Assembly: GCA_013286935.1 (NCBI GenBank)
Contig: JABDES010000001.1
Coordinates: 2,499-66,498 of the forward strand
Length of the DNA stretch: 64,000 nucleotides
Direction of reading: 5' to 3'
From: Candidatus Babelota bacterium
Lineage (GTDB): Bacteria; Babelota; Babeliae; Babelales; Vermiphilaceae
Under the pieces are notes generated by a model. The model saw nothing but the letters and a program-made list of their open reading frames with translations, did not search any database and was not told the DNA's origin. Positions 23,181 through 57,575 of the stretch are shown here, piece by piece. The translations under genes and the position numbers were made by a program. Every line of letters begins with the position of its first letter. Position 1 is the stretch's first letter.

Positions 23181-23198
23181 ATTAGTGGAAAGGTGGAG

Positions 23199-25301: not shown

Positions 25302-25323
25302 TGATTGACGAAAGAAGTGGACA

Positions 25324-27342: not shown

Positions 27343-27372
27343 TGTGGCTATGATGAAAGGGGTTGTAAAAAA

Positions 27373-29625: not shown

Positions 29626-29640
29626 TGATATGGTGCTCTT

Positions 29641-31578: not shown

Positions 31579-31583
31579 TTTAG

Positions 31584-33503: not shown

Positions 33504-33517
33504 GCAAAAGGCGGATT

Positions 33518-35467: not shown

Positions 35468-35494
35468 CATAGTTGTGCGTTTTATTGCCAAGGG

Positions 35495-37426
35495 ATGGAA
35501 ATGACAGCTGCTCTTAGACCAATATTAGGTGTTACCAGTTCATTGTTGTTATTGCACATCATCTATGCATCAGATGTTTATGATTTTCGTCTTATAGAAC
35601 CGCTGGCGCATCTTCTGGGGGCCAACCAAGACGTCAGCCAAACAACCGATGTTATTGATATTCTTGTTGACCCTGTTGTGTTCTATGAAACGAATACAGA
35701 CTCTCTATTGATTGAGTCTGAAGTGGATTACCTTGTCAGAAAGGTAGGTATCGACAGTGTATTATTGTCAAAGCGGCTTGATATGGCTATCGATCTTCAC
35801 AATACGGTTATTGCTTGTCAAGAAAAAATGCACAATGATGCTTGCGCTGCGCAGCATTCAATTACGAGCTTGTGCCAATCGTGCGTAGAACAACTCGATG
35901 TGCGAATGCCTAGTCATTTAGAGGTGCTTGATACGAACGGTGGTGTGTACGATATTAACGATGCCATATTAGGTATAGAATCTGGACTAGCCGCCTTGGA
36001 GTGTATGCTCGATAAAGCAGTTACTATATTTGTCCAACATAGCGTACAAGATACCAAAAAGCGTCTTGATCAAGCTGACAACGTTATTACTAGATTGCAA
36101 GAACAGCTGTGTGATCAGAGCCAAGATTTTGCACAAGAATGCAGTTCGCTCAAGGATGAGATAAACCATCAAGCAGAGCTTGCTGCTCAACATATTCAAA
36201 CCAATAAAAGTAATGCATATAAACAGATAGACGATGCTCTAAGGGCAGTTGAGGATGATAGAGGTGCAGCGATAACAGATGAGACTGCCTTAAAACATGC
36301 CCGTGCAATAGCTACTGTTAATAGTCACAATCAATCGGCGATTGTTGTACTCGAACAGGCGATTCACGAATCTGAAAAGGTGGTACAAAAAAAGGCGAAC
36401 GCATTATTACAACATTGTTCTGATGCTCAGAAAAAAATGCTGCAGTTTGACACTTTTTATAATGCTGAGCGTGATGCTCATGCTTTATTTCACGAGCAAG
36501 TCGAATCTTGTATGAGTGAATTTATTTGTCAGATACCGCTATTCTGTCAGGGGTGGAGTAAGTCATGTGATACATCACAGGAGCATCTTCAAGCGGAAAG
36601 TGAGCACATAATAAAAAGATGGTGTGATACATTGTCAAAAATCCCGTGGAAACAATGTGACTGCCGTATGGTGGCAGAGTGGGTAGAAAAATCGGCTGCA
36701 ATATTTGATAATTTTTTGTCTGGCATGGCATCAAATTTAAAGATTCATACGGTAGAATCAAAAAATGAGCTTAATCGGCAGCTAGGTCCGATGTTAGTCC
36801 TCTTGTCCGAGGTTATTCGTACTGGTTATGCACAGTTAGGCATTGATTTGACTGAACGTCAGGAGCAGCTTGGTGCTAATACTCAGCAACTTGCAGATTC
36901 GATAGCCAATGATACTGCTGCTTGGGCAGATTCATTTTCGGAAAATGTTGTATCGAATCACAATGCATTTGTTATGGCCTTAGAAGACTCTATGTCTGAT
37001 ATAAAACAAACGATTCAGGATACCTTTTTGTCGTTGCAATCTTTAGTGAGCTGTACATTAAAAGCATGTTCGCAGGAATTATCAGGCACGCAATCGGCGC
37101 AAGATGCCTCGGCGCAGATGGCAATTCAAAAGCAATTATGTCAGATCAGCGTGTTTGGTAACGTGTTGTGCGAGAAAATTTTCAATTTGCAAAACAATAT
37201 ACTATTTGCCTTCAACGAAAATCTAAAGTTGGCCTATCGAAATGAAGCGGCAATAGTAAATCAACTTATAGCATCCACCGACCAAATAAATCTTCTTATA
37301 GCTGCGATGGTTAGTGCGGTACAGAGCGATTTAGGTGGGGTGTCTGGCTTTATTGAGCAGGCAATAAAAAATTCAGAAAAAACAACAACAATTCTCGATG
37401 TTATTGTTATTTTAAGTATGTTGTAA
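35495..37426 (+). CDS. Exported Cys-rich helical protein, subfamily B, member 4
   Basis: Signal-like ILGVTSSLLLLHIIYA. C-terminal module VLCEKIFNLQNNILFAF...LIAAMVSAVQSDLGGVSGFI and hydrophobic end ILDVIVILSML. Confidence 0.8.
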   Translation: MEMTAALRPILGVTSSLLLLHIIYASDVYDFRLIEPLAHLLGANQDVSQTTDVIDILVDPVVFYETNTDSLLIESEVDYLVRKVGIDSVLLSKRLDMAIDLHNTVIACQEKMHNDACAAQHSITSLCQSCVEQLDVRMPSHLEVLDTNGGVYDINDAILGIESGLAALECMLDKAVTIFVQHSVQDTKKRLDQADNVITRLQEQLCDQSQDFAQECSSLKDEINHQAELAAQHIQTNKSNAYKQIDDALRAVEDDRGAAITDETALKHARAIATVNSHNQSAIVVLEQAIHESEKVVQKKANALLQHCSDAQKKMLQFDTFYNAERDAHALFHEQVESCMSEFICQIPLFCQGWSKSCDTSQEHLQAESEHIIKRWCDTLSKIPWKQCDCRMVAEWVEKSAAIFDNFLSGMASNLKIHTVESKNELNRQLGPMLVLLSEVIRTGYAQLGIDLTERQEQLGANTQQLADSIANDTAAWADSFSENVVSNHNAFVMALEDSMSDIKQTIQDTFLSLQSLVSCTLKACSQELSGTQSAQDASAQMAIQKQLCQISVFGNVLCEKIFNLQNNILFAFNENLKLAYRNEAAIVNQLIASTDQINLLIAAMVSAVQSDLGGVSGFIEQAIKNSEKTTTILDVIVILSML

Positions 37427-39827: not shown

Positions 39828-41927
39828 TTAATAAGTAACAAGTTCCTTAACTTCTTTTAGGCGCGAAGACAGCAGATTGTTGATGTTGTTTTTAATTTTA
39901 AACCGTTGATCATTGGTTGTGTAAACGCTTCGTGCCAACTCGACGAACTCTTGATCGAATGTTTTTTTCTGTTCCTTGTAACGAATGTTATCTTCAATCT
40001 CCCACAACGTTTCATTTACCATGCGTAGTGCAATAGTAAGCTCATCAAGCTCTTTTGATGGCGTTACTATCTTTTGATAGGCGGTTTGCAAGGCGCTTCT
40101 TTCGTTTTTGAGATGATGTAATTTAGCATCATCCCTTATTTTAGATAGTTTAATATCCAAAATGGTCATTTTATCAATCAGCTCTCCCAGTGATACTTCT
40201 GCAACTGCAATGGTATTATTTTGTTGGTTTAAGTTTATCAGCGCGCTTAATTCGTTGTGTAAATAGCCGGTAACATCATCCCACACACCATTACGGCATT
40301 GCCTGAATAACGTCATTGAGGGATACCAAGGCGAATCTGTACGATGTTGCATCCACCGCCAATGTGCATTTTTTGGCAATAGTACCCATGTTAGCTTATC
40401 AAGCGCACCAGCGATGTGTGCGATGCTGTTATCAGCGCTCATAACAAGGTCTAGGTTATTTACAAGGCCGGAGATTTCAACTAGAGAATCTGCATTGATC
40501 CCCATGCCATTTAAGGTATTGATTTGTGGCAATGTTAGTTCGAGCTTTGACAGTTGATCAATGTCATGTTCTGAAGGGGTTTGCAATAAGTAAACCGTTA
40601 CATGATCTTTGGGCAGAGCCGAAAGAATGAGTGGGAGTGGTATTGTGTTTTCTGAAAAACCGTTTTCTTGTTTGTAATCGTACCATGAGATGCCTACTTT
40701 CAAGCGCACATCTGTTTTTAGTTTATGTTTCCACATGCGATTTATCGATGGCGGTATAGTAATGTATGGTGTTGAGTTTGGTATGGATTCTAAGGTTGTG
40801 TTGCATACATAAGGTAAGCTTGAAAGTGGAATTTGAATATCTGATTTAGGCAATTCATGGCAAGATTGAACTGCTGGAATGAATTCGTCAATAGATGGAT
40901 TTGTCTCCAGAAGCGTTGCAAGCTGTTCATTGCATTCTACGATTAACGATGAGGCGCCACGATTTTTAAGTAACTGCGCGTACCGTATGAATTGAACCAT
41001 ATCGCAGTCGGTTTCTGCTCCAGCGCGAATCGTTACCGTTTTTCCAACCAAATCATCGTTATTCCAATAGGAAGATGAAATATGTGGTTGATCTGTGTTT
41101 CCGGATAGCCTCCATTCTCTGTGCGCAAATCCTTTTTTGAACTCTCCAAGAGCCAAATAGGCTTCTGCTACGCTGCAATGAGCTGATCTGTGTTCTGGCC
41201 ATTGCTCGAGAGTTGAGTGAAAATGCGGGAGCGCTTCCTTGATTTTTCCAAGATAGGTATAGATATGAGCAATAGAAAGATGAGCTTCTGGGTGATTTGG
41301 ATTAATGCGTAACACCCGTCTGAAAAGATCTAATGCGTTTTGAAAATCCCCAGTACGCGCATTGATGCATCCGGCTTCAAACATGAGTGTCGTATCGCTT
41401 GGCTGGAACTCTATTGCGCGATTATATGCTTTTACAGCTTCTGGCAGTAGGTTAGCAACCGTGTACAACCGAGAAAGATTTGCATGTGCTTGTGCATGAG
41501 TTGGATCTATGGTAAGCGCGCGCTTGAGAGCTGCGATACTTTTGGCTATGTCTCCCTGTTCTTGCCATATTGATGCTAAAAAAAGATGCGGCTGTGCTTT
41601 TGATGGATCTAGCTCTGCTGATTTTTCAAGTGCGGCTGCAGCCGTTTTACTGTCTTTATGCATTAAAAAAATAAGCCCAATATTAAAATATGCTTCAGCG
41701 CAGTCCGGTTTTTTCATAATAACTTGTTGAAAACCGATGAGCGCTTCTTTATATTGTTTGTTTGCCAAAAATTGAAGGCTTTTTTTAAATTCTTCGTCGA
41801 CAGAGACTAGCTCTTGCAGGGTTTGCACAGCAGGCATTGACTGGATAAGATCCGCTTTTATGTAACCTGAAAAAATTAAGCCGGATGCCAAAAGAAGGGG
41901 GATAGTAAAATAGTTTTTTGCTTTCAT
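39828..41927 (-). CDS. TPR-repeat protein with degenerate GT9-like glycosyltransferase domain and extra C-terminal helical domain
   Basis: Signal-like FTIPLLLASGLIFSGYIKA. Multiple TPR units (AEAYFNIGLIF, AQAHANLSRLY, PEAHLSIAHIY). GT region VQFIRYAQLLKNRGA, SIAHIAGAL, HWRWM...SPWYPSMTLFRQ, but the GLGD motif is replaced by AETDCD. A ~130-aa extra C-terminus is present (GELIDKMTILDIKL...LWEIEDNIR...LARSVYTTNDQRFKIKN). Confidence 0.75.
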   Translation of the reverse strand: MKAKNYFTIPLLLASGLIFSGYIKADLIQSMPAVQTLQELVSVDEEFKKSLQFLANKQYKEALIGFQQVIMKKPDCAEAYFNIGLIFLMHKDSKTAAAALEKSAELDPSKAQPHLFLASIWQEQGDIAKSIAALKRALTIDPTHAQAHANLSRLYTVANLLPEAVKAYNRAIEFQPSDTTLMFEAGCINARTGDFQNALDLFRRVLRINPNHPEAHLSIAHIYTYLGKIKEALPHFHSTLEQWPEHRSAHCSVAEAYLALGEFKKGFAHREWRLSGNTDQPHISSSYWNNDDLVGKTVTIRAGAETDCDMVQFIRYAQLLKNRGASSLIVECNEQLATLLETNPSIDEFIPAVQSCHELPKSDIQIPLSSLPYVCNTTLESIPNSTPYITIPPSINRMWKHKLKTDVRLKVGISWYDYKQENGFSENTIPLPLILSALPKDHVTVYLLQTPSEHDIDQLSKLELTLPQINTLNGMGINADSLVEISGLVNNLDLVMSADNSIAHIAGALDKLTWVLLPKNAHWRWMQHRTDSPWYPSMTLFRQCRNGVWDDVTGYLHNELSALINLNQQNNTIAVAEVSLGELIDKMTILDIKLSKIRDDAKLHHLKNERSALQTAYQKIVTPSKELDELTIALRMVNETLWEIEDNIRYKEQKKTFDQEFVELARSVYTTNDQRFKIKNNINNLLSSRLKEVKELVTY

Positions 41928-41987
41928 ATACTCTCTTTTTTAATTAAAGTTGCCAAGCACGTAAAATAAGTTAGAACTCCTCATTAT

Positions 41988-43379
41988 TTATTGTGTAATA
42001 AATGCTTCAGACAGTATGTTTAATTCCCAGCGAACGCGTTGGATAACGCTATGCCAATCAAATGGCATAGGCTGCTTGAACAAAGTCATTGTTGGATACC
42101 ACTCAGAACTTGTTTTTCCACTTACCCATCGCCAGTCAGAACTATAAGGTAACAAAAGCCAAACACGACAACCAAGGCCTCCTGCAAGATGACCTACGGC
42201 GGAGTCTACGCATATGATTAAATCTAAATTATTAATAACAGCGGCGGTGTCTGAAAAGTTTCCATGAATTTGATCGAATGTGTCATCAAAGGTCGTTACG
42301 CGAAAATTGTTTGATATATGTTGGATGTCGTTGGCACCATCTTTTTGTTGCAGGCTGTACAACGATACATTGGGCAAGGTGCTCAAGCTTGCCAACAGCT
42401 CACACGGTATTCCTCTTCGTGCCATTGGCAAACGCGAAGAATCATTATGGATGTCTACTTGCCAGCAAATTCCGACCTTACATTTTTTATCTGATGCAAA
42501 AAATGCTTTCCATTTTTCTTGTAATATTTTGTTTGCAGTAATGTATGGAACATCGCGCTGTAGCGTTTCCTGGGAACAATGTAGTATTGATGGCAAGCTC
42601 ATATACGTTACTCGCGCGTCATGAGGTGGAATGTGAGAACCAGCTTCTATTACACAGTCATAGTAATTACAATTTTTTAATAGCTCATATAACGGTTTTT
42701 GTACGAGCGCAATAATGCGAGCTCCACGTTGTTTTAACTCTTTAGCGCATGGAAAAAAATTGATAGTGTCGCCCAATCCGCCTTCTGGAATCAGTAAAAT
42801 TGTTTTTCCGGCTATAGTATTTTCAGCCAATAGTGCGCGCAGTTCCGGTGCATTTTTTCCTTGTTTGATTAAATTCCATTCATGTGCTTTGAACCCTTCT
42901 TGAAAAGACCCCTTAGTGATCAAAGCAAACGAAAGCCCCAGTCGTGCTGCTTCATACTCCGGGTTTACAAGAATTATTTTTCTGAAAATTTCAATTGCCT
43001 TATCAATATATCCCGCAGTCTTTAGGGCGTATCCTATGTTATACAATGCCGAAGTTGAATATTGTGGAAAATGCTTTATGAGTGAATAGTATGCATGCAG
43101 TGCCTGTGGGACATCGCCGCGACAAAGGTGAATGTGTCCAAGCTTGAAAAGCAACTCTATATTAATAGGGTCAAGAGATTGCGCCTGATTTAAATAGAGT
43201 AAGGCTGTGTCAAAATCCTCAGTTTCGCAGGCTTTTGCGCCCTGCGCCAAAAGCGTTGCTACGGTTGGTTGTTCATTTTGATGACCGCACAGCGCAATGT
43301 GTGCGTTGATGATACATATAAGGCATATGACTTTTGCCCATAATGCTTCTTTTTTTATTACTATTGTTTTTGTAATCAT
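41988..43379 (-). CDS. TPR + GT9-like (heptosyltransferase-fold) glycosyltransferase paralog
   Basis: TPR units followed by EGGLGDTINFFPCAKELKQRGA, VGICWQ, VDSAVGHLAGGLG and DWRWV...EWYPTMTLFKQ. The ATG directly abuts the stop of the upstream paralog. Confidence 0.8.
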   Translation of the reverse strand: MITKTIVIKKEALWAKVICLICIINAHIALCGHQNEQPTVATLLAQGAKACETEDFDTALLYLNQAQSLDPINIELLFKLGHIHLCRGDVPQALHAYYSLIKHFPQYSTSALYNIGYALKTAGYIDKAIEIFRKIILVNPEYEAARLGLSFALITKGSFQEGFKAHEWNLIKQGKNAPELRALLAENTIAGKTILLIPEGGLGDTINFFPCAKELKQRGARIIALVQKPLYELLKNCNYYDCVIEAGSHIPPHDARVTYMSLPSILHCSQETLQRDVPYITANKILQEKWKAFFASDKKCKVGICWQVDIHNDSSRLPMARRGIPCELLASLSTLPNVSLYSLQQKDGANDIQHISNNFRVTTFDDTFDQIHGNFSDTAAVINNLDLIICVDSAVGHLAGGLGCRVWLLLPYSSDWRWVSGKTSSEWYPTMTLFKQPMPFDWHSVIQRVRWELNILSEAFITQ

Positions 43380-45020
43380 TTACTCACCGTTATTTAAAGA
43401 CGAACCTGTTTTTTGTTCGACAAATCGTACGAGTTCCTGTTTGATCGTTTCAAATACCTGATCCCAATTGCCGGCGGTTTCCTGCCTGAAAAGACGCATA
43501 TTTGGATACCACGGTGTTTTTGCGGTATACAACATCCAGCGCCAATCTGCAGGTTCTGGTAAAAATACCCAGGTTTCTATTCCAAGACCCGCTGCAAGGT
43601 GAGCCATAGAGGTGTCGACTGTAATGAAAAGATCCATATTTTTTAGTACTGCAGCGGTATCCATAAAGCGTCCATTCGTGCTGTCAAAGCTATCATCAAA
43701 GATATGGATTTCCGGTGGAAGGGCTGCTGCCTGATCAACACCAGTCTCTTTTTGTAGGGAATATAATTTGATATGCGGTACTTGGCAAAGCTTTGCAAAT
43801 TTCACTGCAGGGATTGACTTTGCAGCCACTACAGAGCGAAGTGCAGCGGTTCGATAATTTGCATTTCCTTGCCAGCAAATACCGATCTTAACTCGCTTTT
43901 CGTGCGATAATTTCTGTTTCCACTCATGTTCAAGTGATGCGGATGCATACAGATAAGGTATGACATTTGGGGTAGTTTCAACGGTAGTTTTTAAGATATA
44001 AGGCAGTGTCATAAGTGGTGCTTGGTAATCATATTTGACTGGCTGCTGATTCATAGCAATTACTTTATCTATGTATGGACACAACGCAATAATGGACAAA
44101 AGTGGATTTTGAACACTTACTACAACGCGAGCTCCTTTGTTTTTGAGTATGCGTGCATAACGGATAAATTGAAATGTGTCACCCAGCCCCTGTTCTGCAT
44201 ATAAATAAACGATTTTTCCGTTTAAATCGGCATCTTTGTCAAGCATTGGTTCGCTCAACGTCCTTTGTGGGGGGTACCCGGGACGTTTCCATCTATATTC
44301 ATATTCTGGCCACCCACGATCCCAGTCCCCTATGGTTAGGTATGCCAAGCCTCTGCTAAAACGAGCTTCAGCGTATTCAGGGTCCTGCTCGAGCGATGCG
44401 TTATAAAAAACCATAGCTTCATCTACTCGATTTATTTTTTTTAAGGTGTATGCAGTGTTGTAAAGGATTGTTTTATTGGTGGGAAATTTATCCAACAATT
44501 TGTAATACCAAAATAAAGATTCGTCATTTTCATTTGCCATATTTAAGGTATTTGCAAGATCGAACATGAGATGAGCATTGTCGGGCCGTATTCGAAGTGC
44601 TTCTTTTGTATACAAAATTGCCTGCGCATGATTTTGTGATTCTCGTAAGGAGTTAGCAGTTGCTATGTACATATCCGCCAGAGAGTCTTGCTCGTTTGGC
44701 ATTGGCTCAACTGTTTGACTGTTAGCGATATTGAATGCGGCATCTTTCGGGTCTAATTTAGCAAGTAATAGGCTGGCAGCAGACGTCAAAGATGGATCTG
44801 ATGGGCGCAAACGAGCAGCCTCTTTAAGGTATATTAAAGCAGTTTTATATTCTTTTTTTGTTTGAAGTTCTTCAGATAGGGTTAAATATGAATCTACCAA
44901 AATCTCTTGTTCGTTTTTTGGTAGTAATTCGCTATCAGTTTGTTCGCATAGTGATATTGATGATGTAATGATATGTAGTATGCAAAGGGCATGGTGTAAA
45001 ATTAACTTTATGGTCTTCAT
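43380..45020 (-). CDS. TPR + GT9-like glycosyltransferase paralog
   Basis: Motifs EQGLGDTFQFIRYARILKNKGA, IGICWQGN, VDTSMAHLAAGLG and DWRWM...PWYPNMRLFRQ. N-terminal hydrophobic segment plus TPR units. Confidence 0.8.
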   Translation of the reverse strand: MKTIKLILHHALCILHIITSSISLCEQTDSELLPKNEQEILVDSYLTLSEELQTKKEYKTALIYLKEAARLRPSDPSLTSAASLLLAKLDPKDAAFNIANSQTVEPMPNEQDSLADMYIATANSLRESQNHAQAILYTKEALRIRPDNAHLMFDLANTLNMANENDESLFWYYKLLDKFPTNKTILYNTAYTLKKINRVDEAMVFYNASLEQDPEYAEARFSRGLAYLTIGDWDRGWPEYEYRWKRPGYPPQRTLSEPMLDKDADLNGKIVYLYAEQGLGDTFQFIRYARILKNKGARVVVSVQNPLLSIIALCPYIDKVIAMNQQPVKYDYQAPLMTLPYILKTTVETTPNVIPYLYASASLEHEWKQKLSHEKRVKIGICWQGNANYRTAALRSVVAAKSIPAVKFAKLCQVPHIKLYSLQKETGVDQAAALPPEIHIFDDSFDSTNGRFMDTAAVLKNMDLFITVDTSMAHLAAGLGIETWVFLPEPADWRWMLYTAKTPWYPNMRLFRQETAGNWDQVFETIKQELVRFVEQKTGSSLNNGE

Positions 45021-45044
45021 AGTTACTGCTCCTAATATTGTAAT

Positions 45045-46865
45045 CTAACGTTGTGTACCAAATCGATGTTGATAGCGCGCTAACTCCTCTTGGACTATAT
45101 GCCTTGTTTTATCCGTAAAAGAAATGGTTGATGTGCTTGTGGATTGATTTTCAGAGGTATCGTCACTGGTTGGGATTGTAGGCCTTGCTTGGGTTACCGG
45201 TTCTGTTGATTGGGCAGGACTAGGGTCATTTTTTGATTTATGCTCACTATTTTTATCTTTACTATCCGCTTTATGGCAGACAATCTGTGCGATGATGTTA
45301 GTGATATTTTTTTCAAGCGCGGCAGGGTCGATAATATTTTTTTTTAATTTTGTTGCATTGTCATTTACAAGTGACTCTACCGTATTTTTAATGCGTTGTA
45401 TTACCGGCCCCCATTCACCGGGGGTTTCTTGCTGAAAAATGCGTATTTTTGGATACCATGGAGAATCTTGTCTGTCTACAATCCACCGCCAATCTGCTGG
45501 TGTTGGTAAAATAAGGAATGCATTTACATCAAGTCCTCCTGCAAGATGAATTATGGAGGTATCAACAGAAACAACTAAATCCAAATTTTTCATTACGGCT
45601 GCTGTATCCATAAAGCGGCCATGCGTTTTATCAAAATCACCAGAAAATTGATGTATTGCTATTGAGGGGTCAAGTTCATTTAACTGGTTTAGGCCATCCA
45701 CTTGTTGCAAGCTATAGACCGATACGTTTGGTATTTTTGCAAGGCTTGCAAAAAGATTAAGAGGAACAGACTTTGCAGCTACTGCCCTGCGCAACGCTTG
45801 GGTTGGGTAGTTGCCATTGCCATGCCAGCAGATACCGATTTTGAAATTTTTATCCGAGGATAATCGTTGCTTCCAATAATCGATTAGTTTTGCATCCGCA
45901 TGCAGATAGGGGATATTATTTGGCACGGTTTCAATGGTGGTTCCAAGGATGAGTGGTAGGCTCATGAGTGGAACTTGATAATCGAATTGTGGTAGCGGTT
46001 GATTGCGCACTACGACCTGATCAATATACTTACACAGTCGTAATATATCTGCGGCGGCCGCTTGGGTTTCAAAAATGACGTGAGCACCTTTTTCTTTCAG
46101 GATTTGCGCATATCTAATAAATTCAAACGTATCTCCTAGCCCTTGCTCTGAATAGATTAATATTTTTTTTCCTGCAATATCTGCGCCGTCCCAGAGTGGC
46201 TGAGAAAATCGTTTTGGTGATTCTCCATATGCCTGCCATCGCCATTCATATTCTGACCAACCTTCTTTAAAGTTACCAATTGTCAAAAGAGTGGCTGCCA
46301 AGTTAAAATGCCCAAGTCCATAGTTAGGTGTTATTTCTAATAATTTTCTAAATACTTTAATTGCATCTTCATAGCGGCCCATTTTTTTTAGAGTAAAGCC
46401 AAAGTTGTGTAGTGCGGATACCATGTCCGGCTTTAGCTCAAGAACACGCATGTATAGCGTTATTGACTCCGGATCGCGATCCAGCATGTTAAGCGTATTG
46501 CCAAGTTCCATTAATGCGGTCAAATGGGTTGGGTGTAGCTGTAAGGCCTGTGCATAATGTTTTAATGCAGCATCAAAAGAATCTTTTTCTCGTAAAATGT
46601 TTCCAGCATTGATATGTATGTCAGCCAACCGAGCGCTATCCATGCCAGATGATACAGCAATTGTTTTTTCATAGTAGGCAAGAGCTTTTTCCTTATCTGA
46701 TTTTTCAGCGTAAAATTTGGCAAGCTCAAGATATTCTTCTGCGCTAGGATTGATCGATGGCGTAGATGATTCAATCTCTGACTGACCATATGCATGCGTT
46801 ATGCAAACAAGAAATAGACAAAGGACATAAGACCGGAGAAATGCCAGAGATTTGTTATGCTTCAT
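45045..46865 (-). CDS. TPR + GT9-like glycosyltransferase paralog with S/T/P-rich C-terminal extension
   Basis: Motifs EQGLGDTFEFIRYAQILKEKGA, IGICWHGN, VDTSIIHLAGGL and DWRWI...PWYPKIRIFQQ. Tail DPSPAQSTEPVTQARPTIPTSDDTSENQSTSTSTIS. Confidence 0.8.
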   Translation of the reverse strand: MKHNKSLAFLRSYVLCLFLVCITHAYGQSEIESSTPSINPSAEEYLELAKFYAEKSDKEKALAYYEKTIAVSSGMDSARLADIHINAGNILREKDSFDAALKHYAQALQLHPTHLTALMELGNTLNMLDRDPESITLYMRVLELKPDMVSALHNFGFTLKKMGRYEDAIKVFRKLLEITPNYGLGHFNLAATLLTIGNFKEGWSEYEWRWQAYGESPKRFSQPLWDGADIAGKKILIYSEQGLGDTFEFIRYAQILKEKGAHVIFETQAAAADILRLCKYIDQVVVRNQPLPQFDYQVPLMSLPLILGTTIETVPNNIPYLHADAKLIDYWKQRLSSDKNFKIGICWHGNGNYPTQALRRAVAAKSVPLNLFASLAKIPNVSVYSLQQVDGLNQLNELDPSIAIHQFSGDFDKTHGRFMDTAAVMKNLDLVVSVDTSIIHLAGGLDVNAFLILPTPADWRWIVDRQDSPWYPKIRIFQQETPGEWGPVIQRIKNTVESLVNDNATKLKKNIIDPAALEKNITNIIAQIVCHKADSKDKNSEHKSKNDPSPAQSTEPVTQARPTIPTSDDTSENQSTSTSTISFTDKTRHIVQEELARYQHRFGTQR

Positions 46866-48143: not shown

Positions 48144-49418
48144 TCATCCACCAGGCGTGCAAAATGTTTCAATGATGGCCTTAATCTCCTCCTCTGCGGG
48201 GTTGTGTTTCGTTCCCAAGGAATCGAGAATATGTAATGCGTATTGAGAATCGTTATTCTCCATGACCGCCAAATACCAGTGGCCGTCCTTTATTAAAGGA
48301 TCAGGACTTCCCCTACGAATAAGAAATGAATGTCTATCTCCGATGGGTAGATTTCTGGCAATATTTTTATAATTGTTAGGACGAGCATCATTAGCCCAGT
48401 GCTTGTCCGATGCGCGCCTAGAATAACTTAGCACCTTGTAACTGTCATATACAAAGCTTGTATTACTTGTTGATGGTAATTGATTTGCCATATCTAACTG
48501 ATATGTGTGAATAAAATGATAATGTAAAAATGCGTCCTGTTGGCATTTGTCAGACATCTCTAAGAGATTATGTTTTATTGTTCTAGCGATCTGCGCAACA
48601 TCTTCTTGTGTAATCTGCTCAATACCAAGTGCATCATTAGGGGATTGAAGAGATGGAAATCTATCTGTGCATATTTCGATTGCCCATCTGTTTATGTTGG
48701 CTTGGGTGACAGCTTTTCGAAACTCATCGACCGATGGAATTTTGTCATTTTCAAACAGATGGACTATTTTATTTGCCCACGGATAGATACTATTATTTGC
48801 ATTAAGTAGAGTCGTCATACGTAATAGGAGTTTTGGGTGATACGCTTTGTTTAGGTTGATTATTTTTCCACAAAAAAACCACGCAATGGGATTTGGAATG
48901 TACTTCAAGGCAGCCATGTTTTTTAAGTAGTCATTAACGTATGCACTAAATTGATCGCGATTAATCGTGCTCAGATAGCCTTCAGGGGATCCATTGTTTT
49001 TATTAAGGTGTTCATTAAATCTCATACAATTAAACATTGCCTGATGATGGCATTCTGTTCCATTTGGTTGACGTAGCGTTTTTACGTTAACAATCTTTAC
49101 ACGGTCATTATATGGGCAGTCGATGCCTTGCAGCTCGGGCTGTGGTGAAGGTCTCGTTTTATTAGCGCTGGTTGTGGTTTGTGGGTTGTGTAATAGCCTG
49201 ACAATCGCAGCTTGATGGTACAAGGCTATGGTAGAGATTACTAGCAGCGTTGCTGCAACGATGATCTTTTTCCTATGAGTATAGCAAAACGCTTTGACTG
49301 AATCGGTCAGTGAATATTCCGGCTCACTATCGCATTCCTGTGGCAATGCACCGTTAGACTCGAAGGCAATCAAAAAGAGTACGGTAAAAAGAGGGATTAA
49401 TATTGAGCGTACATTCAT
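48144..49418 (-). CDS. Membrane-anchored/exported putative papain-fold Cys peptidase (paralog P1)
   Basis: Leader MNVRSILIPLFTVLFLIAFES and a second hydrophobic segment. Conserved LRQPNGTECHHQAMFNC and, near the C-terminus, GHWYLAVMENNDSQYALHILDSLGT. Confidence 0.75.
   Translation of the reverse strand: MNVRSILIPLFTVLFLIAFESNGALPQECDSEPEYSLTDSVKAFCYTHRKKIIVAATLLVISTIALYHQAAIVRLLHNPQTTTSANKTRPSPQPELQGIDCPYNDRVKIVNVKTLRQPNGTECHHQAMFNCMRFNEHLNKNNGSPEGYLSTINRDQFSAYVNDYLKNMAALKYIPNPIAWFFCGKIINLNKAYHPKLLLRMTTLLNANNSIYPWANKIVHLFENDKIPSVDEFRKAVTQANINRWAIEICTDRFPSLQSPNDALGIEQITQEDVAQIARTIKHNLLEMSDKCQQDAFLHYHFIHTYQLDMANQLPSTSNTSFVYDSYKVLSYSRRASDKHWANDARPNNYKNIARNLPIGDRHSFLIRRGSPDPLIKDGHWYLAVMENNDSQYALHILDSLGTKHNPAEEEIKAIIETFCTPGG
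48909..49380. repeat. Near-identical duplicated block, copy 1 (5' third of P1)
   Basis: Aligns base-for-base with 50180-50657 apart from scattered substitutions and one 6-bp indel. The remaining parts of P1 and P2 are much more diverged. Confidence 0.85.
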
Positions 49419-50695
49419 AGTCCATCTCCTGCGGGCTTAGCGTCGGGGGTGCAAAATGTTTCAATGATTGTTTTAATTCCCTCTTCTGTGGCCGTGTGTT
49501 CCGTGCCAAGAGAGTCAAGAATGTGTAGATTGTATTGATTGTTATCATTGTGTATAACGATTAGGTACCAGTGATTATTATCCCCAGAATGAGAGATTAG
49601 CCAATGTTTGCTTCCAGCCGGCAAAGTTCTAAGAGTGTTTTGATGATTTGGTAGTGCACACGGATCGCCTGATTGATCTTGTCTACTAAAATAATTTAGT
49701 ATGTTGGTACAAAGACCTTTCCGAGAATACGCAAAACTCGTATCATTTTTTGAGGGCAATTGCTTTGCTATATCTAGCTGGTATGCGTGAATTCGATCAT
49801 AATGACCAAATGCGTCTGATTGGCACTCGCTAGTTATCGTTAAGAGACGATTTTTGATAGTGCTCGCAATCTCTGCAATATCTTTTTTTGTAATCCGTTC
49901 AATATCAGCGGGTTGGAGCGATGGAGAAATATACGCGCATGTTTCGATTATCCATCTGTTTACGTTTGCTTTGGTTACAGCCTCTTGAAACTCTTTGACC
50001 GATGGGATTTTGCCATGCTCAAACAAAGAGGCTATTTCTTTGCCTGCCCATGGATAGATAACATTCTTTTCTTCGGTAAATTGGCTCATATGGTCTTGAA
50101 GCTTTCTATCATGTGTTTGGTTTTGTTTGATTATTTCGCGACCAAAAAACCAAGCAATGCTATCAGCAATGCATTTTAAGGCAGCCATGTTTTTTAAGTA
50201 GTCATTAACGTATGCATTAAATTGATCGCGATTAATCGTGCTCAGATAGCCTTCAGGGGATCCATTGTTTTTATTAAGGTGTTCATTAAATTTCATACAA
50301 TTAAACATTGCCTGATGATGGCATTCTGTTCCATTTGGTTGACGTAGCGTTTTTACGTTAAAAATCTTTACACGGTCATTATAGGGGCAGTCGATGGCTT
50401 GCAGCTCGGGCTGTGGCGAAGGCCTCGTTTTATTAGCGCTGGTTGTGGTTTGTGGGTTGTGTAATAGCCTGGCAATCGCAGCTTTATGGTACAAGGCTAT
50501 AGTAATAGTAGAGGTTACTAGCAGCGTTGTTGCAATGATGATCTTTTTTCTATGTGTATAGCAAAACGTTTTGACTGAATCAGTCAGTGAATATTCCGGT
50601 TCACTATCACATTCCTGCGGTAATGCACCGTCAGACTCGAAGGCAATCAAAAAGAGTGCGGTCAGACAAAAGACTGTTGCTTTATTAAAGTTCAT
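49415..50695 (-). CDS. Membrane-anchored/exported putative papain-fold Cys peptidase (paralog P2)
   Basis: Conserved LRQPNGTECHHQAMFNC and NHWYLIVIHNDNNQYNLHILDSLGT. 4-nt overlap with P1 and 11-nt overlap with P3. Confidence 0.75.
   Translation of the reverse strand: MNFNKATVFCLTALFLIAFESDGALPQECDSEPEYSLTDSVKTFCYTHRKKIIIATTLLVTSTITIALYHKAAIARLLHNPQTTTSANKTRPSPQPELQAIDCPYNDRVKIFNVKTLRQPNGTECHHQAMFNCMKFNEHLNKNNGSPEGYLSTINRDQFNAYVNDYLKNMAALKCIADSIAWFFGREIIKQNQTHDRKLQDHMSQFTEEKNVIYPWAGKEIASLFEHGKIPSVKEFQEAVTKANVNRWIIETCAYISPSLQPADIERITKKDIAEIASTIKNRLLTITSECQSDAFGHYDRIHAYQLDIAKQLPSKNDTSFAYSRKGLCTNILNYFSRQDQSGDPCALPNHQNTLRTLPAGSKHWLISHSGDNNHWYLIVIHNDNNQYNLHILDSLGTEHTATEEGIKTIIETFCTPDAKPAGDGL
50180..50657. 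repeat. Near-identical duplicated block, copy 2 (5' third of P2)
   Basis: See 48909-49380. The offset between copies is about 1271 bp. Confidence 0.85.
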
Positions 50696-51887
50696 TTAAT
50701 ACCTGCACAATAGTCTTAATCTCAGGCTCTGCTGAGCTGTGTCCGGTACTCAAAGAATCAAGCATATAGAGCTTATATCGATCATTACTTTTTTGTATGG
50801 CCCCAAAAAACCAGTGCGCGTATGATTCTTTGAAACAGAATAACGAATGTATGTCGTCTCTAGATAGTGTATTTCTCACATGTTGAGTATGGTCTTCATA
50901 CTGATTGAAAACATTACTTATATAGACTTGCTTTGCCTTACCATCATAGTACAGTAAACTTATATCATCTTTTGATGTTGATGAATTACACACATCTGGT
51001 GGAGCTTTAGAGCAGACGTACGTTAAATGATGAATGATCGTACCGGGTATGTTTGGCAACAGGTGGCCATCGTACATTTTTATTGTTTCAGCAATCTTGT
51101 AAATATCCTTTGTCGTAATATCTTTAATAGGGAAAGATCCAAATGATGCAGAGAACGGTTTGATTTTTTCTGTAAGCCATGTTTGCATAGCAGATTCGTC
51201 TATGGCTTTTTGCCATTCTTGTACAGAGGGTATCTTGTTGTTGGAAAACAGAGGGACTATTGCGCTCGCCCATGGGTATCTAAGGCTATAATTTTTTTTA
51301 CTTATTGGGTTAGAATCACCGTTCATTGTTGCGAAGTAGAACTTGTCGAGCTCCTCTGCATTCTGGTCTGTTGCGTGTTTTGAAATCAAAAAACGCACGA
51401 TTGTGTTAGGAATTGTTTTTAAGGTACTTACCTCATCTCTGAAGCTATCAACGAACTCTTTAAATGAACTTTCTGTTATGCTACTGATGTAGCCATCATG
51501 GCATCCGTTGTGTTCTTTTAGATATTCATTAAATTTTATAAAATTAAATACTGTTCGCCAATGGCAGTCGGTCGCATTTGGCTGAAGCAGTGTGCGCACA
51601 TTGATAATGTCTACCTTGCCATCCCTGATTATTTGGTCGCCGCTTATCGGTAGTAGGCTGCCAAATAGTCGTCCAATCGCATCTTTATGGTATAAACCCG
51701 TTATGCATCCCACCAACAATGTGCAAGCGGCAAGTATCTTCCTATGGTTGTAGAAAAACGCTTGAACTGAATTTTTAATGGAGGCTTTAGGCTCACTATC
51801 GCATTCCTGTGATAGTGCAGGGTTAAATCCGACCGTTACCAGAGAGAGTACGGTAAAAAAAGGGATTAATATTGAGCGTACATTCAT
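50685..51887 (-). CDS. Membrane-anchored/exported putative papain-fold Cys peptidase (divergent paralog P3)
   Basis: The internal ATG at 51887 gives MNVRSILIPFFTVLSLV, with the same AGGAGATGGACT leader as P1. Conserved LLQPNATDCHWRTVFN and AHWFFGAIQKSNDRYKLYMLDSLST. Confidence 0.7.
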   Translation of the reverse strand: MNVRSILIPFFTVLSLVTVGFNPALSQECDSEPKASIKNSVQAFFYNHRKILAACTLLVGCITGLYHKDAIGRLFGSLLPISGDQIIRDGKVDIINVRTLLQPNATDCHWRTVFNFIKFNEYLKEHNGCHDGYISSITESSFKEFVDSFRDEVSTLKTIPNTIVRFLISKHATDQNAEELDKFYFATMNGDSNPISKKNYSLRYPWASAIVPLFSNNKIPSVQEWQKAIDESAMQTWLTEKIKPFSASFGSFPIKDITTKDIYKIAETIKMYDGHLLPNIPGTIIHHLTYVCSKAPPDVCNSSTSKDDISLLYYDGKAKQVYISNVFNQYEDHTQHVRNTLSRDDIHSLFCFKESYAHWFFGAIQKSNDRYKLYMLDSLSTGHSSAEPEIKTIVQVLNEL

Positions 51888-52150
51888 AGTCCATCTCCTG
51901 TGTGTGCTTTGCACTAGATGCGCGTGCCATATTGAGCATTTCGTAGTATTATAGAGTATAGCAATTATAATTATATTATGCAAATTGGCAAATTGGAGGG
52001 CTCTGGACTACTCAGGCCAGGCTTGGTTGCATGTGTGGCAGGTTGATATGAATGGGAAATGGGCCCTGTGGCTAGATTGATGGGGCTTGTTGGCTGGATT
52101 ATTGAAGGTTGTCAGAACGGTACAGATAGATTGAGGGGCTGTACAAAACG

Positions 52151-52188
52151 CTCCACCCTGATCGCAATATATTGCGATCAGGGTGGAG
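52151..52188. terminator. Perfect 38-nt palindrome, likely terminator hairpin downstream of 52226-53161
   Basis: CTCCACCCTGATCGCAATA|TATTGCGATCAGGGTGGAG. T-rich sequence follows on the + strand and CGTTTTG on the - strand. It sits between two minus-strand genes. Confidence 0.5.
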
Positions 52189-52225
52189 TTTGGTGTTTGT
52201 GGCCTGTTTTTTTAGAGTGTCAAAG

Positions 52226-53161
52226 TTATGATTTGCCTTGTGGCGCCTGTGTGGCTACGCCCTGCTGCGCTTCAATTTTTTTGACCTTGTCTGGGTTTTG
52301 CTTGGCCCATTCGTTAATTTTTTCATTTATTGTGTTACGATCCATGTTTTTAATAGAGAGTCGCTCGAATATCCCCGCGCTATTTAACTCTATATAGCGG
52401 TTGTCGCTATCATTATCAATGCACCTACAGTCTATCTGGCACAATAGATCATCGTATCCTGCAAATGCACCAGAGCCTTTGTAAGAAATCGTATATTTTT
52501 GTTTAATATCAAGCACTAATTGCCAACCATAACTATATGAGATTTTTAATAGGCTTAAGGGTATCCGTTTTGTTACATAAGTGTCAGATTGAATCTCTAT
52601 TTTGTGTTCATTTCTATCGTTATACCATTGGTCAGGCAGTGCTTGCCCTGGTTTTGAAACGCCAAACTCCATAGTGCTTCCACCGACAGTGCCTTTTGTA
52701 CGAATTTGCAGCTTAGCAGGAGAAGTTACTCCAGGCAGATAAAGCTCTATGATAAAGTCATACGTATCGCCTCGTTTTTCAGTTTTACGTGAAAAGCTCA
52801 TAACTTTTGCTTTGTCTGGCTTTGCAAATGCGTTTTCCCAAGGAACAATATCTGAGTCCCATTTGGCCCAAACATCTTTATTTCCATCCTTAAAAAAATT
52901 AAAAAATTGATGGTCATTATAAAAGCACCTAAACTTTATATCTTCCGACAGCTTTGGACAGTTGCCCGAGAAAGTACTTCTGGCGATTCCAGAGCTACCA
53001 CCTTCATAAGCACTCGACCCACCGCAATGCCCGTCGGACCTACTATCCTGCCCAACATATACATAGGTAGTTGAAGCCCAGATGCTGACAGTATTGATAC
53101 CGCATAGCAGTGCAATGGCTGCCATGTTGCGTAGTCGTTTTATAGTGCATATAGTGATCAT
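52226..53161 (-). CDS. Hypothetical exported protein
   Basis: Signal-like NMAAIALLCGINTVSIWA. 311-aa ORF with no recognisable motif. The start (53161 or Met at 53125) is uncertain. Confidence 0.55.
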   Translation of the reverse strand: MITICTIKRLRNMAAIALLCGINTVSIWASTTYVYVGQDSRSDGHCGGSSAYEGGSSGIARSTFSGNCPKLSEDIKFRCFYNDHQFFNFFKDGNKDVWAKWDSDIVPWENAFAKPDKAKVMSFSRKTEKRGDTYDFIIELYLPGVTSPAKLQIRTKGTVGGSTMEFGVSKPGQALPDQWYNDRNEHKIEIQSDTYVTKRIPLSLLKISYSYGWQLVLDIKQKYTISYKGSGAFAGYDDLLCQIDCRCIDNDSDNRYIELNSAGIFERLSIKNMDRNTINEKINEWAKQNPDKVKKIEAQQGVATQAPQGKS

Positions 53162-53398
53162 CCTTTATCCTCCTTATTGTTACGTAATTGAAATAATCAT
53201 AAGGATTATAAGATAAACAATAATTAATAGTCAATATTTGAGTGGAAAATGGTCGGTAATATCTGCTGAATACCGTATTCCGAAGCTTTGTTAAAATTGA
53301 CTAATTGGCTAGCAACAATTATTAAGGTAGGCTTTGGTTACATGTTGCTTTTTTGTATTATGAAAATGTTTACCTGCTTATTTGAAAAATGGATCTTT

Positions 53399-53917
53399 AT
53401 GCTTAAAAAATTACCTCTAGCTCTAAGTGATTTTCGTAGATTACGGGAATCTAACTGTCTTTATGTTGATAAAACAAAGTATGTCTACGAGCTTATTACC
53501 GGTTATGGGCGTTACTTTTTGTCCCGCCCGAGGCGGTTTGGCAAATCGCTATTAGTTTCAACGCTCAAGCAGGCTCTGGAAGGCAACAAGGGGCTTTTTG
53601 CTGGCCTATGGATTGCCGATAGTGACTATACATGGGAAAAACATGCGGTGGTGTTTCTTGATTTTTCAACGCTTGGTGGGATTGGAACTCCCCAGGAATT
53701 CCTTTTATGCATGGTTAATGCGTTAGTGCTGAATGGAAATCAACATGGCATTGAGTTGGATACAAGTTCGCAATCAGTTAGTATAATTTTTCAAAATTAC
53801 CTGATTGCTATGCATAAAAAATATGGCAAAGTCGCCATATTGATTGATGAATATGATCGTCCAATTTTGCATAATCTGCATAACATTGAACTTGCTAAAT
53901 CGATCAGGCGTCTTTAA
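53399..53917 (+). pseudogene. Truncated AAA-ATPase-like gene (N-terminal ~170 aa only)
   Basis: LSDFRRLRESNCLYVDKTKYVYELI...YFLSRPRRFGKSLLVSTL...ILIDEYDRP matches the predicted AAA-ATPase N-terminal domain. As I recall, this is normally followed by a PD-(D/E)XK-type domain in ~500+ aa proteins. Here a stop follows shortly after the IDEYD motif and ffh starts 170 bp later. Confidence 0.55.
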
Positions 53918-56192: not shown

Positions 56193-56236
56193 AATAAAAG
56201 CGTTATTTTCGTTACGGCTAAGATAACGCTTTTATT
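56193..56236 (+). other. Second hairpin immediately upstream of trmD
   Basis: 14-bp arms AATAAAAGCGTTAT / ATAACGCTTTTATT with a ~16-nt loop, followed by T-rich sequence. Possible terminator or attenuator. Confidence 0.35.
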
Positions 56237-56267
56237 GATTTACCACACTTCCAAGGCCAAGATTCTC

Positions 56268-57575
56268 ATGCCAATTTTAGTATCCATTATTACTGTTTTT
56301 GAAGAGCTCTATAAGCCCTTTTTGCAAACAAGTCTTCTCGGGCGTGCTTGCCAGGCAAAATTAATTGACGTATTTGTTGAAAATTTATTTTCACATGCCC
56401 AGCCAAAGAAACGCATAGATGCCCCTGCTTATGGTCCTGGGGCTGGAATGCTTATTCGTCCTGACATAGTTCAAAGGGCCATCGAGAAGCGAGAACAAGA
56501 GTCTGGCAAGGCCTTTAAAATATTTTTCTCTCCACAGGGTCAAAAGATTGATCAGCGCCTTTTAGAGCGATTGGCTGAAAAAATCAGAAGTATTGGGCAT
56601 GTAATGCTGATTGCGCCCAGATACGAAGGAGTTGACGCGCGGGCCGAGGAGGTATACGCCGATAGCGTATTGTCGATTGGTGATTTTGTGTTAATGGGCG
56701 GAGATTTACCAGCGCTACTGTTTTTAGAGGCGTTTTTGAGGCTCATCCCAGGAGTGGTTGGTTGTAAGGAGTCTGTTGAACGCGACTCATTTTCCGGTCC
56801 ATTTGTTGACTACCCCTCATTTACTGAGCCGCTTGTGTGGCTCGGCAGACAAGTGCCGGACATACTTCGTTCTGGCAACCATGATCTTATTGAAAAATGG
56901 CGATTAGACCAAGCAGCTAAAAAGACGGTTTTGCAGCATTTTGCTTGGTTGCGCGTCACGCGAACGAATGACTATCAACAAGAAAGCGCATGGAAGCATA
57001 TACCGCCTCACTATGTTGTGCTATTGCATTCTGATGTTTTGGTTGGTCCTGATTTGGTTGAAGGTACAACCTCTGTTACCTCTTTGGATATTCACGACAT
57101 AGCGCGGTCGGCTACGACGTATGGATTTAAGAAATTTTTTATCGTTACGCCCCTGTTAGACCAACAAAAAATTGTTAATAAATTACTTGATTTTTGGCAA
57201 AATGAGGAAGGTAAGGACTACAATCCGAATCGTTATCAGGCGCTTGAACGTGTGCTTTTGCTTAGCTCTCTTGATGAAGTGGTTGCGTATATACACAAAA
57301 TGGAAAACGAGTTTGCGCTTTTGATTGGTACGTCTGCGGATCGAAAAGAGCATACCAACGCAATAACGTTCTTTGATCAAGAAAAAGTATGGGCTGCTAA
57401 GCGGCCTGTGTTATTTTTGCTCGGCACAGGCAATGGGTTGAGCGGGTCCGTTATTCAGAAAACGGACTTTTTTTTAGAGCCGATTTACGGATTTATGAAG
57501 TTTAATCATTTGTCAGTGCGTTCTGCAGCAGCAATATTATTTGATCGTTGGCTGGGGCTCAGTCCGCGGTCATGA
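56268..57575 (+). CDS. trmD: tRNA (guanine37-N1)-methyltransferase TrmD fused to a C-terminal second SPOUT-like RNA methyltransferase domain
   Basis: ATG 56268 gives MPILVSIITVFEE. TrmD motifs GPGAGMLIRPD, PRYEGVDAR, SIGDFVLMGGDLPAL, RSGNH. An extra ~200 aa follows (VVLLHSDVL...TSLDIHDIARSATTYGF...LLGTGNGLS...FNHLSVRSAAAILFDRWLG). Confidence 0.85.
   Translation: MPILVSIITVFEELYKPFLQTSLLGRACQAKLIDVFVENLFSHAQPKKRIDAPAYGPGAGMLIRPDIVQRAIEKREQESGKAFKIFFSPQGQKIDQRLLERLAEKIRSIGHVMLIAPRYEGVDARAEEVYADSVLSIGDFVLMGGDLPALLFLEAFLRLIPGVVGCKESVERDSFSGPFVDYPSFTEPLVWLGRQVPDILRSGNHDLIEKWRLDQAAKKTVLQHFAWLRVTRTNDYQQESAWKHIPPHYVVLLHSDVLVGPDLVEGTTSVTSLDIHDIARSATTYGFKKFFIVTPLLDQQKIVNKLLDFWQNEEGKDYNPNRYQALERVLLLSSLDEVVAYIHKMENEFALLIGTSADRKEHTNAITFFDQEKVWAAKRPVLFLLGTGNGLSGSVIQKTDFFLEPIYGFMKFNHLSVRSAAAILFDRWLGLSPRS

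Follow-up and report, generated by a model that had tools for sequence, protein, structure and literature searches.

How should a family of proteins be read that carries the catalytic motifs of Ulp1/SENP proteases in the wrong order? The question is raised by three genes on the minus strand, between positions 48144 and 51887, of a 64,000-nucleotide stretch of DNA from Candidatus Babelota bacterium (GenBank assembly GCA_013286935.1, contig JABDES010000001.1), the whole of which we call the window. Their products, P1, P2 and P3, present a Gln-Cys motif ahead of a His-Asp motif, whereas the order in Ulp1/SENP enzymes of clan CE is His-Asp-Gln-Cys. A preliminary description of this DNA had pointed to the resemblance and had left two explanations, namely a circularly permuted CE-like fold or a distinct papain-fold family, and had drawn a comparison with Josephin domains. 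We favor, with somewhat better than even confidence, the reading that P1-P3 are circularly permuted, Ulp1-related papain-fold cysteine (iso)peptidases that are anchored or exported. That they are papain-type Cys/His/Asp hydrolases of some kind is, judging from their sequences, highly probable. That they act as effectors directed at ubiquitin (Ub) or ubiquitin-like modifiers (Ubl) is a tentative proposal, to which we give slightly less than an even chance.

Motifs and architecture of P1, P2 and P3

The three open reading frames (ORFs) are arranged head to tail, and each contains both motifs. P3, the first gene of the array and its most divergent paralogue, spans positions 50685-51887 and encodes 400 amino acids, including Gln102, Cys108, His358-Trp359 and Asp377. 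It is followed by P2 (49415-50695, 426 amino acids, with Gln119, Cys125, His375-Trp376 and Asp394) and then by P1 (48144-49418, 424 amino acids, with Gln117, Cys123, His380-Trp381 and Asp399). The start of P2 overlaps the stop of P3 by 11 nucleotides, and P2 and P1 overlap through the sequence ATGA. A database record exists for the exact product of each ORF; for P3 this is the 400-residue product, and a longer, TTG-initiated ORF has no record. The array thus consists, as first described, of three tandem paralogues of about 400 to 425 residues.

The first motif holds the proposed oxyanion residue Gln117 and the proposed nucleophile Cys123 of P1. It reads LRQPNGTECH at residues 115-124 of P1 (49047-49076, minus strand, as for all features of these genes) and, by alignment, at residues 117-126 of P2 (50318-50347), and the aligned segment of P3 is LLQPNATDCH at residues 100-109 (51561-51590). 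The second motif provides the proposed base His380, the candidate gatekeeper Trp381 and, on the next strand, Asp399. It is HWYLAVMENNDSQYALHILDSLGT in P1 (residues 380-403, 48210-48281), and alignment places it at residues 375-398 of P2 (49502-49573) and, as HWFFGAIQKSNDRYKLYMLDSLST, at residues 358-381 of P3 (50745-50816), in each case about 45 residues before the C-terminus. The alignment confirms the earlier claim that all three proteins have the first motif, which lies near residue 100-125. The second is likewise present in all three, with one correction to the pattern (H-W-[YF]...[IM]-L-D-S-L-[GS]-T): its sixth position, given as Val or Ile, is Ala in P3. Gln, Cys, His-Trp and Asp are invariant among P1-P3, and their order is Gln-Cys...His-Asp in every paralogue. 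The first motif aligns with QQPNGYDC of Ulp1, QQMNGSDC of SENP1 and QQTDQSAC of RickCE, and the second aligns with HWALGIID...VDSLS of Ulp1 and HWCLAVVD...YDSMG of SENP1.

Each protein begins with a strongly hydrophobic leader at residues 1-23 (49350-49418 in P1, with Kyte-Doolittle 19-residue means of up to 2.0). In P1 and P2 the residues before Ala24 are S-N-G or S-D-G, and the P1 leader looks like a Sec signal peptide, with a putative cleavage site before Ala24, or a signal anchor. A second hydrophobic helix of P1, KIIVAATLLVISTIALYH (residues 51-68, 49215-49268), is a likely membrane anchor; for the segment at about residues 50-68, the 19-residue mean is above 1.5 in P1 and P2, whereas P3 has a weaker segment. 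After this helix comes a Pro/Ser/Thr-rich linker (P1 residues 76-103), which is about 14 residues shorter in P3. Both hydrophobic segments are therefore found in all three proteins, as had been proposed from the sequence, and they fit the suggestion that the proteins are exported or membrane-anchored. A basic HRKK cluster precedes the second segment and leaves the topology unsettled. Farther along the chain, an all-helical lobe (P1 residues ~154-313, 48477-48957) separates the Cys helix from the His/Asp sheet, and carries the conserved elements YPWA and KIPSV-E-F.

P1 is 67% identical to P2 and 39% identical to P3. Nei-Gojobori ratios of nonsynonymous to synonymous change (dN/dS) between the paralogues range from 0.25 to 0.45, which indicates purifying selection on maintained genes. 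In the segment that encodes the His/Asp motif, synonymous change is saturated and the proportion of nonsynonymous differences (pN) is 0.20; the saturation extends across the 3′ halves of P1 and P2. Beside these saturated halves is a tract of 98% nucleotide identity between the same two genes (48976-49100 and 50247-50371), which encodes residues 107-148 of P1, including the strand, the Gln, the Cys and the helix. It is flanked by tracts of 89-91% identity (48815-49114 with 50086-50385, and 49228-49385 with 50505-50662). This juxtaposition points to a recent recombination or gene conversion event between P1 and P2.

Database matches in native and permuted order

Curated profile libraries are blind to P1-P3 in native order, save for a half-match of P2. 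Specifically, full-length P2 reaches 18.7 bits against Pfam Peptidase_C48 (PF02902), over the His/Asp half only and below the gathering score of 20.7 bits that serves as the cut-off. Full-length P1 and P3 have no Pfam match, and no native protein reaches the PF02902 threshold. When only the core regions are searched in native order, P1 and P2 match just the His/Asp half of Peptidase_C48, and P3 has no Pfam match. NCBIfam returns nothing relevant for the native order. Similarly, neither the native-order family profile nor the native core retrieves a protease from the PDB sequences, and this includes Josephin, UCH and C39 chains.

The outcome is different when the C-terminal half is joined in silico in front of the N-terminal half. 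Permuted full-length P2 matches Peptidase_C48 with 27.8 bits (E 2.7e-6) in one alignment, over profile positions 93-186, that runs from the His over the artificial junction to the Cys helix. Removal of nine residues from the C-terminal tail of P2 raises this score to 28.4 bits (E 1.8e-6), and a match to RickCE_cat also appears. The permuted core of P2 matches Peptidase_C48 (E 2e-6), RickCE_cat (E 4e-4) and LupA (E 0.05). The permuted core of P1 also scores above the Peptidase_C48 cut-off (21.6 bits, E 2.1e-4, profile positions 91-185), and that of P3 matches RickCE_cat (E 0.0057) in an alignment from His to Cys.

Controls built from P2 locate the source of this improvement. The C-terminal half alone scores 19.2 bits, and it scores 18.1 bits when followed by a shuffled N-terminal half and 19.4 bits when followed by a reversed one; the N-terminal half alone has no Peptidase_C48 match. 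A 15-residue linker added at the junction leaves 22.4 bits, and deletion of the strand before Gln leaves 20.5 bits. Thus, about 9 bits are gained only when the halves are joined in CE order and at the right spacing. At the level of sequence, these matches, in which CE profiles span both motifs only over the C-to-N junction, support the permuted CE alternative raised in the preliminary description.

Profile-profile alignment yields a similar result. With hhalign, the permuted family aligns to a profile of 24 SENP1/2 sequences with a score of 38.0 (P 9e-5) over 78 columns that span His, Asp, Gln and Cys. For comparison, 240 column shuffles give a mean of 15.1, a standard deviation of 3.0 and a maximum of 28.3, and the reversed alignment scores 15.8. 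The likeness to the Ulp1/SENP motifs exceeds chance. In native order, query columns 10-41 align with template columns 168-196 (Gln/Cys) and query columns 266-297 with template columns 110-139 (His/Asp). Two such non-collinear pieces are the signature of a circular permutation. A comparison with SENP1 by itself gave no information, since neither profile was deep enough.

Among PDB sequences, the permuted core finds RickCE (5ham, E 0.064) and the ULP_PROTEASE chains 7fiu (E 0.13) and 6ups (E 0.16), so that three of its ten matches belong to clan CE. Each of the three alignments extends from before the His to after the Cys. What carries weight in this search is the recurrence of one small clan, and only in the permuted order. 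When the full permuted profile is aligned with yeast Ulp1 (1euv), its His, Asp, Gln and Cys fall on H514, D531, Q574 and C580, respectively.

A canonical CE domain might in principle also be assembled across gene boundaries, from the His/Asp half of one gene and the Gln/Cys half of the next. We reject this arrangement on two grounds: leader, anchor and linker would place about 115 residues between the halves, and each gene has its own start.

Predicted structure, relatives and genomic setting

An AlphaFold2 model of P1 was built on a four-sequence alignment. In this model a strand (residues 107-112) leads to the Gln117 loop, Cys123 lies at the N-terminus of helix 124-140, and helices occupy residues 154-313. 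His380 then opens strand 381-389, Asp399 closes strand 392-399, and a final helix covers residues 410-420. The second hydrophobic segment is modelled as helix 49-67, and the linker is of low confidence. The predicted topology would fit a papain-type active site. Read from the His on and continued at the N-terminus, the model presents strand, strand, helix, strand, Gln loop and Cys helix, and this stretch aligns to Ulp1 without large gaps. The 25 residues after Asp399 and the approximately 13 structured residues before Gln117 together roughly equal the 43-47 residues that part Asp from Gln in Ulp1/SENP1.

Relatives of these proteins are few. A word-indexed search of 5.8 billion clusters returned the paralogues only, and two scans of metagenome contigs and one of viral contigs found no family members. 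An exhaustive hidden Markov model search of 1.84 billion representatives returned one real outside homologue, P0004, together with one spurious repeat protein. P0004, which is encoded on a 59-kb JGI contig, has 422 residues and is 31% identical (E 2.5e-53). Two further residues, His405 and His299 in P1 numbering, do not vary among the four family members.

The source of the window is a Dependentiae (TM6-type) bacterium: the GyrB encoded at 6798-9239 has its closest named relatives in Candidatus Dependentiae/Babeliales metagenome-assembled genomes, with 66-69% identity, and is 78% identical to its nearest relative overall. A scan of genome contigs with HflX gave just a distant Treponema match, and the searchable contig collections do not contain the source genome. 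Cultured members of the Dependentiae/TM6 group are obligate intracellular parasites of protists. This setting fits the proposal that P1-P3 serve as effectors of an intracellular bacterium. In Chromulinavorax, a cultured member of the Dependentiae, 44% of proteins have Sec signal peptides, and among them are putative peptidases that are secreted or bound to the membrane (PMC6561590).

Likely signals for expression of the array are found upstream of P3. The sequence AGGAG (51899-51895) lies seven bases ahead of the P3 ATG at 51887. About 75 nucleotides upstream of the same start is a promoter-like site, TTGCCA-16-TATAAT (51964-51991, minus strand), which agrees with the consensus at 11 of 12 positions; it is a consensus match only, and such sites are no more numerous in the region than in shuffled sequence. 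Farther upstream, a hairpin formed by a perfect palindrome of 17-18 base pairs (52150-52189) is terminator-like on both strands and, on the minus strand, has a T-rich tail after it. This hairpin (52151-52188) stands downstream of the preceding gene, an ORFan with a signal peptide (52226-53161), and parts it from the P3-P2-P1 array. At the other end, hflX begins 56 nucleotides after P1 on the same strand, and no terminator-like site was seen in the gap between the two genes. The genes around the array comprise the housekeeping genes hflX, ffh, trmD, yidC, gyrB and glmS together with arrays of ORFan and TPR genes.

The window has other features outside the array. On the plus strand, positions 21180-37426 hold eight consecutive ORFs of 639-750 amino acids; a scan of four of them found no Pfam domain, and identity to the first ORF is just 12-17% for the remaining seven. 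They could represent an ORFan array that evolves quickly, or else genes that have little more than their size in common. On the minus strand, directly downstream of hflX (39828-46865), are four tandem genes for TPR-repeat proteins of 463-699 amino acids, one with a weak Glyco_transf_9 match and another with DUF6165/DUF4254 at its C-terminus. A plus-strand ORF of 446 amino acids (56235-57575) fuses TrmD, the tRNA m1G methyltransferase, to a second S-adenosylmethionine-dependent RNA methyltransferase domain (PF09936). A further plus-strand ORF of 209 amino acids (53288-53917) matches only the first 167 of the 201 positions of AAA-ATPase_like (PF09820) and is probably a truncated remnant.

A proposed permuted peptidase and its place among known systems

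If P1-P3 are indeed permuted Ulp1-related enzymes, the leader would insert the protein into the inner membrane or carry it across, and a catalytic domain of about 320 residues would be tethered by the second hydrophobic helix together with the flexible linker. Along the chain this domain would comprise the strand, Gln117 and the Cys123 helix, then the helical lobe of about 190 residues, then the sheet that bears His380-Trp381 and Asp399, and the final helix. If the C-terminus were linked to the beginning of the domain, this would restore the normal CE order of His, Asp, helix, strand, Gln and Cys with normal spacing. Cys123 would attack the (iso)peptide bond, with His380 as its activator, Asp399 orienting His380, and Gln117 forming the oxyanion hole. 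The intervening helical lobe, which lies outside every profile alignment, may be the counterpart of the N-terminal substrate-binding lobe of CE proteases and probably replaces it in binding Ubl. Trp381 would serve as an aromatic gatekeeper that limits the S2 site to Gly-Gly tails. An aromatic residue directly after the His is a gatekeeper motif that marks Gly-Gly-cleaving deubiquitinases (DUBs) and ULPs (PMC7391069), and the position of Trp381 therefore favors Ub or a Ubl as the substrate. Because the source belongs to a group of which only intracellular protist parasites are known, the most likely job would be the removal of Ub or Ubl, by cleavage after Gly-Gly, from targets in the host or on the bacterial surface. 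The three diverging copies might serve different modifiers or linkages.

Several observations weigh against this proposal. The native AlphaFold model is poor, with a mean predicted local distance difference test (pLDDT) score of 59.6 (70-93 in the helical lobe), and the model of the permuted sequence is unusable (39.7). A Foldseek search with the native model against PDB and BFVD gave no match at E<=0.001; its only suggestive rows, at non-significant scores, are the clan CE proteins HopZ1a (E 2.6) and African swine fever virus S273R (E 1.1). No similarity is detectable between the helical lobe and the N-terminal lobe of CE enzymes. Each statistic taken singly is moderate (best E ~2e-6, PDB matches at 0.06-0.17), a flavin reductase outscores the CE chains by chance, and the permuted matches of P1 and P3 are much weaker than that of P2. 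Among about 15 billion proteins, only four members of the family were found. Moreover, P0004 keeps Gln and Cys (as Q-x6-C) but has Thr-Phe in place of His-Trp and Ser in place of Asp; it is a pseudo-enzyme or else a caution against the triad assignment. The topology is a further concern, in that two spans of the inner membrane would leave the domain on the cytoplasmic side of the bacterium. Alternatively, the domain would face the host if the signal peptide were cleaved and the protein inserted afterwards into membranes of vesicles or of the host. Finally, the CE triad also serves acetyltransferase chemistry in the YopJ family, and the label of protease is not guaranteed.

Could the native order simply be the correct one? 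Gln-Cys...His-Asp is the order of clan CA, and P1-P3 might be papain-like peptidases of that clan (a Josephin-like DUB or clippase, a UCH-like or a C39-type enzyme) with a large helical insertion, whose likeness to Ulp1 arose by convergence on a Gly-Gly-recognising site. Such a history needs no rearrangement. Josephin/MJD domains (C86) resemble P1-P3 in presenting Gln, Cys, His and Asn/Asp in this order, in the HW at the base, in L-[ND]-S-L and in a helical insertion between Cys and His. The HW...NL[ND]S-L of Josephins, like the Q-x5-C and H-[FY] of C39 peptidases, speaks for this reading; Josephins depart from P1-P3 in their Q-x4-C and in a spacing of 15 residues from His to Asn. Bacterial Josephin-like DUBs and ubiquitin C-terminal clippases occur in other protist- or host-associated bacteria, with members in Simkania, Parachlamydia and Burkholderia. 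Since the CA and CE folds are the same apart from the permutation, topology alone cannot separate the two readings. The searches, however, do not favor clan CA. In Pfam, full-length and insert-deleted constructs in native order match no CA family, Josephin, C39 and UCH included, at E-values up to 10, permuted constructs match none either, and the native profile finds none in the PDB, as noted above. The Josephin domain has about 180 residues versus about 320 in P1-P3, and the ABC transporter domain that usually accompanies C39 peptidases is absent, as is profile similarity to C39, from P1-P3, and no such domain occurs in the adjacent genes. With hhalign, scores of 12-15.6 against ATXN3 alone and against three Josephins equal the shuffle background, in a comparison that, with only three Josephin sequences, is not symmetric with the 24-sequence SENP profile. 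We therefore reject a Josephin relationship at the sequence level, and the comparison drawn in the preliminary description is not supported. With the 9-bit gain of the CE profiles confined to the CE order at the right spacing, we regard the clan CA explanation as unlikely.

Two further explanations alter the chemistry or the target rather than the order. A CE-type fold might perform another reaction, as an acetyltransferase of the YopJ/ChlaDUB-like kind or as a deamidase, or might be a pseudo-enzyme or binding module in which Cys, His and Asp are structural. Among the non-significant PDB rows the top Foldseek probability belongs to HopZ1a, a YopJ-family acetyltransferase; CE effectors with acetyltransferase activity are documented; and P0004 has lost His and Asp while the rest of the protein is kept, as expected if catalysis were dispensable. 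Nevertheless, YopJ-type enzymes (C55) use a His-Glu-Cys triad in CE order, and no Pfam match to Peptidase_C55 is found in either the native or the permuted order. P1-P3 all retain Gln, Cys, His-Trp and Asp despite 39% identity and saturated synonymous divergence, and the His-Trp motif is typical of Gly-Gly-cleaving hydrolases. This possibility is given quite a low chance. Lower yet we place an envelope housekeeping role, in which the proteins would be periplasmic or membrane cysteine amidases or peptidases that act on bacterial substrates and not on the host. The signal peptide-like leader would suit this role, as would the position of the array among hflX, ffh, trmD and yidC, on the same strand as hflX and with no terminator between. 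A housekeeping enzyme would be expected to be widespread, whereas this family is almost unique and was not found in other Dependentiae. NlpC/P60, CHAP and other cell-wall hydrolase profiles give no matches in Pfam or NCBIfam, and tandem amplification with rapid divergence would be typical of genes for host interaction. We consider this role improbable.

The permuted Ulp1-related reading leads to a comparison with the Ulp1/SENP family itself (MEROPS C48, PF02902, clan CE). Its motifs and those of P1-P3 are nearly identical, with QPNG[TY][DE]C at the nucleophile and, at His and Asp, HW-L...[IV]-DS[LM]. Both have the spacing Q-x5-C, and His and Asp are 19 residues apart in P1-P3 versus 17 in Ulp1. 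The Trp after the catalytic His is shared as well and, in the predicted model once the termini are joined, so is the order of secondary-structure elements from the His to the Cys helix. In contrast, the order in P1-P3 is Gln-Cys...His-Asp, with about 257 residues from Cys to His, and the proteins differ further in their N-terminal signal or anchor segment, in their helical lobe and in their Dependentiae source. Because they lack the CE order and fail the native Pfam threshold, we do not file them as C48, and treat them as a permuted variant related to it.

The described bacterial effectors of clan CE (RickCE, PF22179; the OtDUB-type chains 6ups and 7fiu; ChlaDUB, SseL and XopD) come from intracellular bacteria, as P1-P3 do. 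ChlaDUB1 is membrane-anchored at its N-terminus. RickCE and the OtDUB-type chains give weak but repeated His-to-Cys profile matches with permuted P1-P3. Unlike P1-P3, the described members are all in CE order. Most of them reach their targets through type III or IV secretion, whereas the route proposed for Dependentiae depends on Sec signal peptides (PMC6561590). We found no earlier report in the literature of swapped active-site halves in clan CE. In the available portion of a 2023 survey of papain-like families, a cluster that includes the CE effector families C55 and C122 has a permuted helix, and no member with the canonical order is mentioned (PMC10318531).

Profile libraries miss proteins of this kind, and searches for effector DUBs and ULPs should therefore include permuted queries. 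If our reading is correct, P1-P3 would be the first concrete candidate for manipulation of the ubiquitin system in the Dependentiae, a widespread and almost unstudied phylum of protist parasites, and they would provide a direct test of how well the Ulp1 fold tolerates re-threading. A bolder version, which we hold to be on balance more doubtful than secure, is that these proteins are the first clan CE proteases with Cys ahead of His, arisen by back-permutation or as a surviving intermediate between clans CA and CE. In that case they would be active, Sec-exported and membrane-anchored Ub/Ubl isopeptidases that edit the ubiquitin system of the protist host, with different specificities among the copies.

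Such proteins would form a mirror image of the permuted bacterial OTUs, which are documented for EschOTU and the Coxiella EmcB family; an engineered permuted vOTU stays active. EschOTU and EmcB would resemble P1-P3 in being bacterial, DUB-type papain folds whose Cys helix has been transferred to the opposite end of the domain. They have no sequence relationship to P1-P3, and they are OTUs of clan CA with the order His...Cys, whereas P1-P3 are CE-like with the order Cys...His. Clan CE has itself been described as a circularly permuted papain fold (PMC7391069; PMC7396840). What chiefly separates the two clans is whether Cys or His comes first, and the proposal that a circular permutation connects them is of long standing. 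A CE-like enzyme with CA order would blur this boundary from the CE side, just as EschOTU and EmcB blur it from the CA side.

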